The notes under the pieces were generated by a model that was not told the origin of the DNA, ran no database searches, and worked only from the letters and a program-made list of their open reading frames with translations. Source: Escherichia coli (GTDB lineage Bacteria; Pseudomonadota; Gammaproteobacteria; Enterobacterales; Enterobacteriaceae). Taken from it: DNA of 64,000 nucleotides. Positions 969-5,674 of the stretch are shown piece after piece (the stretch's first letter is position 1; the number at the start of each line of letters is the position of its first letter). Position numbers and translations under genes: made by a program. Location: the NCBI RefSeq assembly GCF_041248615.1, contig NZ_CP158426.1; one strand, given 5' to 3'.

Positions 969-1957
969 TCTTTGTCCTCTGCTTTCATTAAAACGGCGCG
1001 CTCGGTTCTGATTAACAATTTTCCTTGCATCAGAAGCGCAAAAGTACGGATGAGCAGTATTGCAATAATAAAATTGGTAAAGATAAACAGCGGCACCGCC
1101 AGCGTATGGAAAAATCCATTATCGCTGCCACTCCCCAGATGCAAACCGGTGGTTGCCAGTGCAGATACGCCGAACGAGAAACTCCAGAATGAAGCATTAA
1201 ATGGCTGGGAGAGATACCATGGCATCAGACGTAGCATAAACAGCAGTTGCAGCAGCCCATAACCGAAAAGCATTTTCGCCAGCGTGTCACCCTCGCCGCC
1301 GTTGACGCTCAGCCAGGCACTACAGGCCACGAGCGCAGGAGCGAGCTGAATGCCGAGTGATGTCCGCAGCGCCGTGGGTAATTCTCCCGAACTGCGCAGA
1401 CGCTGCAAGATCACCGGTTCCAGGCTTAACCATGAGAAAACGCCTGCGCCTAAAAACACCAGACCGGCGTCGGTGTAGCCCAATGCACCACAGGCCATTG
1501 CGCTGATAAAGTTGTTGGCAACTGTCGGCAGATACAGTCCAGGCGTGGTAGCTTCTTCAGGGTGAGATCCGCGCCATAATCCCGCAGTTTGCCATGCGGC
1601 ATAAGCCAGTTGCACCACGACACCAAAACTGAACAGGCACACCGCCAGTGGGCGAAACCACGGAACAAAACCAATCGCCACCAGCATCGTCGTTGCCGGA
1701 AACAAACTCACAAAACTGCTCAGCACTGGATGGCGCACTTCCGCCAGCACGCTATGCGGAAAGCGTATGAGTCGGGTAATAAATGCGCCAGTCAATAATC
1801 CCCAGATGATCATCGCCAGAATCACCAGCCCATCCCCTAACCAGTGGCTGACCTGCCAAACCTGGCTGGCATAGCGCCAGGCAAATCCCATCCCTATCGT
1901 CCCCAACACAATACCAAAATAGCCTGCCGGCAAATTGAGCACTTTATCGCTCTGCAT
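965..1957 (-). CDS. tehA: tellurite resistance / C4-dicarboxylate-type membrane protein TehA (330 aa)
   Basis: Track ORF 965-2065 trimmed to internal ATG ([15 protein letters not shown]...) giving the 330-aa length I recall for TehA; hydrophobic multi-pass protein. Confidence 0.9.
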
Positions 1958-2080
1958 CTTCTTACTCATTTTGTTTAATTTATAAAGTATATTTGAAATG
2001 CATTTTATGGAATTTTCTCGAGCATAGCCAGAGCCGCAGAATTTGCTACGGTTATAGTAAGTCACCTGTGGGAAAACGCT

Positions 2081-3061
2081 ATGCGCAAATATCGTCTAAG
2101 TGAAGAACAGCGAGCCTTTAGTTATCAGGAAGATGGCACTAAAAAAAATGTGTTATTACGGCAGATTATCGCCATTAGCGATTTTAACGATGTGATAGCA
2201 GGAACCGCTGGCGGCTGGATCGATCGCGAAACGGTGTTAGCACAGGAAGGAAATTGCTGGATTTACGACCAGAATGCTATTGCGTTCGGCGGAACGGTGA
2301 TTTCCGGTAATACGCGTATCACCGGCACCAGCGTGCTGTGGGGAGAGGTTTACGCAACGGATAACGTCTGGATCGATAATAGTGAAATCAGCCAGGGTGC
2401 ATATATAAGTGACAGTGTCACCATTCATGACTCATTAGTTTACGGGCAATGTAGAATATTTGGTCACGCCTTAATTGATCAACATTCTATGATCGTCGCC
2501 GCACAAGGCTTAACGCCCGACCATCAACTCCTGCTACAAATTTATGATCGCGCAAGGGTTAGCGCCTCGCGTATTGTTCACCAGGCACAAATTTATGGCG
2601 ATGCCGTCGTCCGGTATGCTTTTATTGAACATCGCGCCGAAGTTTTTGATTTTGCCAGCGTTGAAGGTAATGAAGAGAACAACGTCTGGCTATGCGATTG
2701 CGCTAAAGTCTACGGTCACGCGCAGGTGAAAGCTGGCATAGAAGAAGATGCCATTCCGACGATTCATTACAGTTCGCAGGTGGCGGAATATGCCATTGTG
2801 GAAGGTAATTGTGTGTTAAAACATCATGTCTTGATTGGCGGAAATGCCGTGGTACGTGGCGGACCGATTCTGCTCGACGAGCACGTTGTAATACAAGGTG
2901 AGAGCCGTATTACAGGTGCGGTGATAATTGAAAAACATGTGGAGTTAACCGACCACGCCGTCGTTGAAGCCTTTGATGGCGACACGGTTCATGTCCGTGG
3001 TCCAAAAGTCATTAACGGCGAGGAGCGCATTACGCGAACGCCGCTGGCAGGGTTATTGTGA
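2081..3061 (+). CDS. ydcK: uncharacterised protein YdcK (326 aa, hexapeptide-repeat-like)
   Basis: Track ORF; repetitive beta-helix-like sequence; position between tehA and rimL as in K-12. Confidence 0.85.
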
Positions 3062-3592
3062 ATCGATAATACGCGCGTATAAGTTCACATCATCATAGGC
3101 ATCATTCAGGAACTCAGCCTGTTTCAGACAACCTTCAAGGATAAAACCATTGCGCAAAGCGACCTGGTTGCTTTGCGGATTGTCCACCCGACATTTGATC
3201 ACGAAGCGTCTAAGTTCACCAGACTGAGCGTAATGATGAATCAATGCCTGCAGCGCCTGAGAAATGATCCCCTGCCCCTGATGAGATTCGTCCAGCCAGT
3301 AGCCGATTTCAGCGGTTTTATTCAGTGGTTCAATACGATTAAACGAGATAACGCCGATAAGTTCATCTTCTTTGAAAATCATGAACATTTTGGCATATCC
3401 GCGTTGATGCAACATTACATTGCCCTGCACCGTTTTTCGCGTGTCCTCTTCACTTTGAACAAACTGCGGCCAGTTTAGCGACTGCTGTAACCAGGTTCTA
3501 TTTTTACAGATTAACTGATAAAGAGGTGTGACATGACTTTCTGCAACAGCATGTAATTCAAGTGATTCACTTACTTTTATCGTTTCGGTCAT
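3053..3592 (-). CDS. rimL: ribosomal-protein L7/L12 serine acetyltransferase RimL (179 aa)
   Basis: Track ORF 3053-3607 trimmed to [16 protein letters not shown]...; GNAT acetyltransferase; 9-nt convergent overlap with ydcK. Confidence 0.88.
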
Positions 3593-3621
3593 CTTATCTC
3601 CAGTCAATCCATGCAGTTGTT

Positions 3622-3646
3622 AAAAAAGCCGCCTGGCTGGCGGCTT
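3622..3646 (-). terminator. intrinsic terminator downstream of ydcH
   Basis: GCCGCC-loop-GGCGGC hairpin with A-run on plus strand (T-run on minus) just past the ydcH stop; approximate coordinates. Confidence 0.5.
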
Positions 3647-3654
3647 AGGAAAGT

Positions 3655-3879
3655 TTACACCTCTTTGACGCTCTCCTGCTGCAGGATTTTGAGCATCTCA
3701 TCTTTTAACTGTAGCTTTTGTTTTTTCATGCGGACCACTTCCGCATTGTACCCTCGACCGTCGGAACCTTCCTTTCTGGCAATTTCATGATCAAGTTTAT
3801 TGTGTTTATCGAACAAGGACATAAAGCGAGGATTTTCGTTTTTCAGACGGGATATTAAATCTCGGTATTCTGGAAACAT
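3655..3879 (-). CDS. ydcH: small protein YdcH (74 aa, DUF465-like)
   Basis: Track ORF trimmed to MFPEYRDLISRLKNENPRF...; recognised as YdcH. Confidence 0.85.
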   Translation of the reverse strand: MFPEYRDLISRLKNENPRFMSLFDKHNKLDHEIARKEGSDGRGYNAEVVRMKKQKLQLKDEMLKILQQESVKEV

Positions 3880-4018
3880 ACGCACTCCCTGTTAGTGGCT
3901 GACAAGGTGTATCTGAAATACACACTATCAGATTACTCATTTAACTTAGGGAAAAATGCGAGCGGGATCGTGTTTAACCAGACGGCACCTCCCGAAGAAG
4001 GTGCCGAAGAAAAAACGA

Positions 4019-5674
4019 TTAACTCATCACGCGGTCGTCAACATACTGACGTTTATCCGGCGCTGGCGGGAAATACTGATACAGCCATGTTTCACTGATA
4101 GCGTCGCCCTGACAACGCAGATACATCCGCATATCGACCGGATCAGTGGAGTCCGAAGTCGGATACCAGTCAAACTGAATACGATAACCATCAATGGGTT
4201 CAATATAGAGAATTTCGATTTGCTTCGCTTCCCCACTGGAAAGCGTAATCACCGGCTCAATGCCTTTTGGTGCGGCAGCTTTCAGATCACCACCAACGAA
4301 ATCGACGGCAAAACGACGCGCCCATTTTTCGGGATAGTGTTCACCTGGCGCCCAACCTTCCGGGAAACCGCCCATGCCGGTACGCGTCGCCATAACGCGC
4401 GCTAATGGGCAATGAACAGGCGGTTGCGCACTCCAGTACAGACGATACTGGAATGCAAACTCATCACCCGCTTTTACAGCTTTTTCTGGCTGCCAGAAGA
4501 AGACAATGTTATCCAGCGTTTCACCCGTAGTTGGGATTTCCATCAGGCCGATGGTGCCCTTACCCCACTTGTTACGCGGTTCCACCCACAGACTTGGGCG
4601 TTTGTTATACCAGCCCATAATGTCCTGATAATGAGAGAAATCACGATCCAGTTGCAATAAACCAAACCCTTTCGGGTTGTTGTCGGTGTAAGCATTGAAC
4701 TGCAATTTTTGCGGATTGTTCAGCGGACGGCAAATCCACTCGCCGTTGCCCCGCCACATGGACAGACGATCAGAGTCATGGATTTGCGGATGAATGGTGT
4801 CGCACATCCGACGTTCATTAGTACCGCAGCTGAACATGCTGGTCATCGGCGCAATGCCCAGCTGTTTAATGTCTTTGCGCGCATACAGGTGATTTTCCAC
4901 ATCCATAATCACCTGACTTTTCTCACAATGGATAGTGAACTTATAGGCACCAGTAATGCTGGCGCTATCGAGCAACGCATAAACGGTAAAGGTGGTTGCC
5001 CCCGGTTTTACCGTATCAAACCAGAAGGCGGTAAAGTCGGGGAACTCTTCTTTACTGTCGGTGTAAGTGTCGATCGCCAGGCCGCGAGCCGATAGACCGT
5101 ATTGATATGTGTCGTCAACGGCGCGGAAATAACTCGCACCGAGGAATGATACGACATCACGGCGCGCCAGTTCGGGGGCTTTAAACACGCGAAAACCGGC
5201 AAAACCGAGATCGCTTTGCCCTTCTAATTGTTTGGTATCAACACCCGCATCGTTGTATTTGAACAACTCCGGGCGAAAGTGAATTTCACGCGCCAGATGT
5301 GTTGCGGGATCTACAGAAAACATACGAACGCGGCGACGGAATCCCATTCCCATATGGAAGAACTGAGCGTCCAGTTGACGGTTCTCAACGTTATGCCAGA
5401 GCGATTTTTCGGCGTCGTATTGAATACTGTTATAAGCCTGCGGCGTCATTGTCGCCAGAGTGTCAGGTAACGGACGCGGCGCACCTCGCCACGCTGTTTG
5501 CGCTAAGTCGTGCGCCATTGACTGTAGAATGGAGAAGTCAAAACGTTGGGTTTGCCCGTCGGCAATATCAGAATCTGCCGCGAATGCCGCCTGAGAAAAA
5601 AGAGAAGCAATGCCGCTGGTACCGCACACGGCGGCCATAGCCATTGAACCTTTAATAAATCGTCTACGATCCAT
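4019..5674 (-). CDS. opgD: glucans biosynthesis protein D OpgD/MdoD (551 aa, Tat-exported)
   Basis: Track ORF; N-terminal twin-arginine signal [32 protein letters not shown]; recognised as OpgD. Confidence 0.93.

Follow-up and report, generated by a model that had tools for sequence, protein, structure and literature searches.

The window, a 64,000-nt stretch of Escherichia coli DNA (RefSeq assembly GCF_041248615.1, contig NZ_CP158426.1), carries two convergent genes that share their 3' ends. On the plus strand, ydcK (2081..3061) encodes a 326-aa protein of the YdcK family, a beta-solenoid or left-handed beta-helix protein whose function is uncharacterised. On the minus strand, rimL (3053..3592) encodes the 179-aa ribosomal protein L7/L12-serine N-acetyltransferase, an enzyme of the GNAT fold. 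Both assignments were drawn from the open reading frame (ORF) list, RefSeq, Pfam and the PDB. The rimL frame spans 3053..3607 on the minus strand in the ORF list, with the annotated ATG at 3592-3590 and the TAA stop opposite 3053-3055.

The RimL sequence matches PF13302 (Acetyltransf_3, GNAT; E 5e-23, 82.7 bits) and YdcK matches PF18836, the YdcK beta-solenoid repeat, together with LbH families. Salmonella orthologues of both proteins have solved structures, 2F9C/2PIG for YdcK (E 1e-142) and 1Z9U/1S7x for RimL (E 9e-81), and each alignment reaches to within one residue of the C-terminus. The window RimL is 98% identical to K-12 b1427 and is a GNAT enzyme orthologous to the characterised RimL. 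Full-length orthologues of both ydcK and rimL were recovered in 38 other loci, and both are bona fide genes.

Next to ydcK, on the minus strand, the stop of tehA and the start of tehB overlap by 4 nt at 965-968 in a co-directional ATGA junction. The form of tehA in the ORF list begins with GTG, extends up to 2065 and encodes 366 aa; the annotated gene extends up to 1957 and encodes 330 aa.

The nine shared nucleotides

Read directly from the window, positions 3050..3064 are GGG TTA TTG TGA ATC, and the genes share the 9-nt stretch TTATTGTGA at 3053..3061 on both strands. On the plus strand these nucleotides encode Leu325 and Leu326 of YdcK and its stop, and on the minus strand Ser178 and Gln179 of RimL and its stop, so that each gene contributes two sense codons and a stop codon and the codon boundaries coincide (phase 123:321). 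YdcK ends in Gly-Leu-Leu, with its TGA at 3059-3061. RimL ends in Asp-Ser-Gln, its final codons GAT, TCA, CAA and TAA being the reverse complements of 3062-64, 3059-61, 3056-58 and 3053-55, respectively. Each stop therefore lies opposite a sense codon of the partner gene, whose reverse complement it is: TTA at 3053..3055, the Leu325 codon of ydcK, is the complement of the rimL stop TAA, and TGA at 3059..3061, the ydcK stop, is the complement of TCA, the Ser178 codon of rimL.

The identical 9-nt overlap is present in the RefSeq annotation of strain TUM1886 and of K-12 MG1655 (b1428 and b1427), where rimL occupies 1498938..1499477 and ydcK 1499469..1500449. Bases 1800-4000 of the window are 100% identical to TUM1886, and of the 5426 complete E. 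coli genomes 5412 contain the region. An earlier note on this DNA had described the last three codons of the two genes as overlapping; the overlap is seen directly at 3053..3061, and the sequence, the ORF list and RefSeq agree with the gene names, the coordinates and the 9-nt length that it gave. Two genuine genes on opposite strands thus share 3' nucleotides that include both of their stop codons, and the overlap is real, ordinary, probably harmless and already known. It forms part of the standard K-12 annotation, and the listing of the pair as an excludon and the Rho termination of read-through within ydcK have likewise been tabulated before.

It could be supposed that a reading frame or stop was called wrongly and that the true genes do not overlap, given that the function of YdcK is uncharacterised and that rimL is flagged as a pseudogene by PGAP in an O157:H7 strain. 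The 3' end of an ORF is set by its first in-frame stop, which leaves nothing adjustable in the call. The solved orthologues aligning to within a residue of both C-termini and the full-length conservation of both genes in 38 other loci also speak against this explanation, and the O157 flag stems from the loss of the last residue only. As both genes are genuine, the overlap is not an annotation artefact, and we reject this explanation as hardly credible.

Outside these comparisons, the locus is missing from 14 of the 5426 complete E. coli genomes and five copies of it lie on records labelled as plasmids. The ydcK region of strain LHM10-1 (NZ_CP037903.1) lies in two separate pieces, possibly because of an insertion in the gene.

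Stop codons within E. coli and across the Enterobacteriaceae

Alignment of E. coli genomes revealed a polymorphic base at position 3058, which is G in the window and A in many other strains. The G3058A change is silent in ydcK (TTG to TTA, both Leu) and converts Gln179 of rimL from CAA to TAA. In the A form, TTATTATGA, rimL stops one codon sooner, which shortens RimL to 178 aa and the overlap to 6 nt. Using allele-specific 35-mers, each unable to seed a match on the other allele, we found the G allele in at least 3363 and the A allele in at least 1925 of the 5426 complete genomes; full 61-mers were identical in 2014 (G) and 1911 (A) genomes. Other Escherichia species have G at this position, so the A allele is probably derived. 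The earlier note had raised a different choice of stop codon for either gene as grounds for doubt, and such a stop occurs naturally for rimL in about one third of E. coli genomes, where a 6-nt overlap is still there.

This polymorphism is a minor annotation trap, since the loss of one terminal residue is enough for rimL to be called a pseudogene. The rimL gene of the O157:H7 strain Vac_07.1, which carries the A allele, is recorded by PGAP as a pseudogene with an 'internal stop'; the sole cause visible at the junction is G3058A, and we attribute the flag to the loss of the terminal Gln only. Many of the genomes with the A allele, at least 1925 in number, may be mis-flagged for rimL in the same way.

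A search with YdcK through a single genome for each species yielded 39 loci, and Salmonella was added through its PDB sequence. Stop-to-stop spacing was counted in the 38 loci with both genes, all of them other than the window. Thirty-one loci have -9 spacing; they come from Escherichia (species and clades), Citrobacter, Enterobacter sp., Superficieibacter electus, Pluralibacter, Yokenella and Trabulsiella, and their YdcK identity ranges between 94% and 55%. Two loci, Salmonella (TTAA) and strain RIT693, have -4, three from Cedecea and Dryocola have zero, and a Superficieibacter sp. and Buttiauxella have +3 and +22, respectively. None of the 38 loci departs from this range of -9 to +22 nt between the 3' ends, even where YdcK identity is as low as 45%.

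The two C-termini behave differently across these loci. The YdcK tail is conserved as TRTP(L/I/F)xG(L/S/V)(L/F) directly before its stop. RimL is conserved up to YARI(I/V)(D/E), beyond which it ends in SQ, xxSE, RSQ or SE, or has no tail in the taxa with zero spacing. With the YdcK tail conserved and the RimL tail varying, the overlap most likely arose from a shift of the rimL stop.

Only three codons, TTA, CTA and TCA, have a stop codon as their complement. The ydcK codon that faces the rimL stop is one of these in every locus with -9 spacing, giving TAA, TAG and TGA, respectively. At other positions of these genes the same codons account for just 20% of the Leu and 9% of the Ser codons, although the count at the facing codon is partly circular because the group is defined by a stop at this position. 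The variation among the three shows that the anti-stop codon has changed several times, once with a Leu to Ser replacement in YdcK, while always remaining a stop for rimL. Where rimL stops elsewhere or is missing, the codon is mostly unconstrained, being TCC, TCG, GTT, GTA or GTG in seven of eight loci (TCC in Salmonella, TCG in a Pluralibacter metagenome-assembled genome (MAG), L040, and GTN in outgroups) and CTA in the eighth, L022. The opposite pairing varies as well: in L024 and L025 the ydcK stop is TAA and a RimL Leu codon (TTA) lies opposite, so that RimL ends in EVLE. Loss of the rimL stop would extend RimL by 35 residues in this strain and by 1 to 309 residues in others.

The genes on either side are arranged alike throughout the examined loci, in a tehB-(tehA)-ydcK-rimL-(ydcH)-opgD block. 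Conserved adjacency of ydcK and rimL was considered as a sign of coupling between them and set aside as uninformative, because the entire block from tehB to opgD is syntenic and the adjacency of this one pair is not specially preserved.

Several departures from this arrangement were recorded. The Pluralibacter MAG (L040, 3979-4030) is the sole locus where rimL does not follow ydcK; there ydcK ends in TCG CTG TAA and read-through would run for 231 codons. The tehA gene is missing between tehB and ydcK in L022, L024-L027, L031-L035 and L038, which represent Superficieibacter, Yokenella, Trabulsiella, one Cedecea and Buttiauxella, and tehB persists there without its usual partner. The region past the rimL start is variable: in Salmonella (L042, 4234-5981) a peptidase M42 / PTS IIB / EIIC cluster replaces ydcH-opgD, and in six Citrobacter loci (L010, L011, L014, L017, L019 and L020; 4520-6035) an insertion of about 1.4 kb separates rimL from ydcH.

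Additionally, three of the database records appear to be misattributed. A 237-bp contig of the Bacillota species Alkalicoccobacillus porphyridii (L041, NZ_VLXZ01000410.1) codes for part of a protein with 99% identity to YdcK of E. coli, which probably reflects contamination of the assembly with E. coli DNA. The 405-kb contig CACSKA010000006.1 (L024), which is labelled Chryseobacterium sp. 18061, carries an enterobacterial tehB-ydcK-rimL block nearly identical to that of Citrobacter sp. 18056 (L025) from the same project, and looks like a sample mix-up or mislabel. A MAG labelled 'uncultured Raoultella' (L012) looks like Citrobacter braakii.

Transcription and termination at the junction

The earlier note had held that the overlap leaves no room for a terminator between the genes, and this was borne out: intergenic DNA is absent, and no intrinsic-terminator-like site lies near the junction. 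A consensus scan of 1800..4200 gave a single match, at position 2601 within ydcK, and shuffled sequences gave more. A relaxed search for a hairpin followed by a U-tract returned one weak candidate on the minus strand, at 3044..3015 (-13.8 kcal/mol), a span 9 to 38 nt beyond the rimL stop that leads into UAAUGACUU, a poor U-tract. The 160 nt past either stop did not fold better than shuffled sequence (z -0.27 and -1.07). Alignments of 17 species, folded for both strands, held no conserved RNA structure (alifold -1.4 and 0 kcal/mol, with zero compensatory pairs). The junction lacks the G+C-rich hairpin between an A-tract and a U-tract that defines a bidirectional intrinsic terminator.

These results bear on the proposal that an intrinsic, bidirectional terminator is hidden in the coding sequence and ends both transcripts within tens of bases. 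Among 58 convergent overlaps of E. coli, 21 have a predicted Rho-independent terminator for at least one of their genes (Lillo & Krakauer 2007, PMC2174442), and the hairpin at 3044..3015 with UAAUGACUU and a 12-bp palindrome, ATACGCGCGTAT, at 3069..3080 might be taken for parts of such an element. The hairpin is not conserved, its U-tract is poor, and no compensatory pairs accompany it in the 17 species. The palindrome falls within the Tyr-Ala-Arg-Ile codons of rimL, leaves room for too short a loop and has no palindromic counterpart in other genera, and was rejected as a signal in favour of chance or coding constraint. With nothing near the junction in the consensus scan, no excess of folding over shuffled sequence and no conserved structure, we conclude that the coding sequence conceals no terminator. 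The read-through past rimL that has been measured is also Rho-sensitive (PMC7815308), and we reject a hidden terminator as very unlikely.

Published K-12 data describe how transcription of rimL begins and ends. Positions were transferred from K-12 to the window via the collinear loci L001 and L002. Full-length transcripts place a rimL transcription start at 3646 on the minus strand (K-12 1498884) and the start of a longer opgD-ydcH-rimL transcript at about 5752 on the same strand (K-12 1496778; Yan et al. 2018, PMC6131387, supplementary operon tables). Adams et al. (2021, PMC7815308, Suppl. file 2) list a Rho termination region at K-12 1499587 (+), in the class 'antisense ydcK', which corresponds to about 2943 on the minus strand of the window, 110 nt past the rimL stop, a position of low resolution because the score uses 800-nt windows. 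Reads at this region fell from 82 upstream to 20 downstream without bicyclomycin (BCM) and were 137 and 144 with it; the Rho score was 4.3 (p 1.5e-8) and termination was bicyclomycin-sensitive (PMC7815308). We found that the RNA at this region is richer in C than in G, and that the C/G ratio of the RNA 3' of rimL is 1.0 to 3.0.

Transcription of ydcK has left less trace in the same surveys. No unit with ydcK (b1428) is present among the full-length transcripts (PMC6131387 operon tables). In file 1 of Adams et al. no Term-seq 3' ends are assigned to rimL or ydcK, the only one nearby being the primary 3' end of ydcH, and a 3' end of the ydcK transcript was not found in the data of PMC7815308 or PMC6131387.

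In the absence of both intergenic DNA and an embedded intrinsic terminator, each transcript must end inside the other gene. The earlier note went further and stated that the transcripts must read into each other, which holds only if both genes are transcribed. For rimL, K-12 data support transcripts that run into ydcK; for ydcK, reading into rimL is plausible. Termination does happen, yet it takes place within the partner gene via Rho instead of between ydcK and rimL.

Could the missing spacer itself have been selected? In such a convergent excludon the 3' ends of the two transcripts would be complementary, and transcription of either gene would lower expression of its partner. Colliding RNA polymerases, or RNase III cutting the RNA duplex, would then tie L12 acetylation to the role of YdcK. 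The pair is among the 165 convergent excludons of MG1655 (ExcludonFinder, PMC12288877, Table 1), a list of pairs present in at least 50% of 58 MG1655 transcriptomes as judged from RNA-seq coverage. Rho mapping shows rimL-sense transcription entering ydcK (PMC7815308), and the genes have stayed abutted, at -9 to +22 nt, in all 38 two-gene loci across deep divergence. Against these points, the excludon call was made from coverage thresholds alone. Full-length sequencing detected no ydcK unit (PMC6131387) and ydcK is barely transcribed in the surveys examined, so mutual interference may rarely occur. The overlap's length is labile, being 9 or 6 nt in E. coli, 4 in Salmonella and 0 to +22 elsewhere, the complementary stretch displays neither added conservation nor added structure, and the surrounding block is syntenic in any case. 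Selection for an excludon is thus unlikely. That the persistent absence of a spacer has been selected and that antisense read-in couples the L12 acetyltransferase to YdcK, as a conserved functional excludon, we regard as decidedly unlikely.

Origin of the overlap and comparison with known systems

We consider it probable that ydcK/rimL is a plain convergent overlap of two unrelated genes, the neutral by-product of a stop shift in a pair without a spacer, with termination within the partner gene via Rho. The 3' ends of the two genes would have had practically no spacer since before these Enterobacteriaceae diverged, and the ancestral rimL may have ended in YARI(I/V)(D/E) right against the ydcK stop, as it does in present Cedecea and Dryocola. 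On the branch that gave rise to Escherichia, Citrobacter, Pluralibacter, Yokenella and Trabulsiella, the rimL stop was presumably lost. The rimL frame would then have been read to its first in-frame stop, the complement of the second-last sense codon of ydcK, and RimL would thereby have gained a short and variable tail. The observations behind this origin, in an unrooted comparison, are the longer and more variable RimL tail in the clade with -9 spacing and the zero spacing of outgroups. A shift of the rimL stop into ydcK, as opposed to the reverse direction, is the simplest reading of these sequences, drawn as it is from few outgroup loci.

The pairing of stop and anti-stop codons would since have been maintained because ordinary purifying selection disfavours far longer extensions of the C-terminus, with the last sense residues of both proteins otherwise free to vary. 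The rimL transcript, as the K-12 literature shows, would be terminated by Rho within antisense ydcK, about 110 nt from the rimL stop, and the ydcK transcript would presumably be terminated by Rho acting on untranslated RNA. The nine shared bases would need no function of their own.

What the present comparison adds to the existing annotation is detail, namely the stop/anti-stop pairing, the 9/6-nt polymorphism in E. coli and the 4-nt TTAA overlap in Salmonella. The pair offers a textbook-style illustration of how convergent overlaps originate and drift; it matters little beyond this and raises no new question. The judgement of the earlier note that such overlaps are common and of low interest is well founded, with 58 to 75 convergent overlaps annotated in E. 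coli.

Several known systems resemble this junction. Collision-driven bidirectional terminators (Wang et al., bioRxiv 10.1101/2022.10.23.513370) act on the same kind of head-on convergent pair, but their mechanism needs a stem-loop between the gene boundaries, and none is present or conserved at ydcK/rimL. Convergent excludons (PMC12288877) are alike in that the pair is listed among them, its transcripts overlap at their 3' ends and it has effectively no intergenic region. Overlapping terminators are predicted for most of the E. coli excludons of that study but could not be detected for ydcK-rimL, and the excludon status of the pair is known from RNA coverage alone.

A further match is the termination by Rho of antisense transcription and of 3' read-through in E. 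coli (PMC7815308), in that rimL-sense reads show the same BCM-sensitive drop in antisense ydcK. The RNA past the stop codon is untranslated and richer in C than in G, as in that system, a likeness documented for the rimL side only.

Nothing essential separates the pair from the convergent overlaps of prokaryotes in general (PMC2174442, PMC4161906), which share the same 3' arrangement, the anti-stop codons TTA, CTA and TCA and, probably, an origin by extension after stop loss. There are 58 such overlaps in E. coli by one count (Lillo & Krakauer 2007, PMC2174442) and 75 convergent pairs among 663 overlapping pairs by another (Huvet & Stumpf 2014, PMC4161906). Phase 123:321 accounts for 21% of convergent overlaps, and for 33% of those of at least 5 nt, in 58 prokaryotic species (PMC2174442), and mutation of a stop codon is their usual origin (PMC2174442, PMC4161906). 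Compared with the commonest convergent form, which is 4 nt long (TTAA and similar), the ydcK/rimL overlap is longer here, at 9 nt, and of that same 4-nt length in Salmonella.
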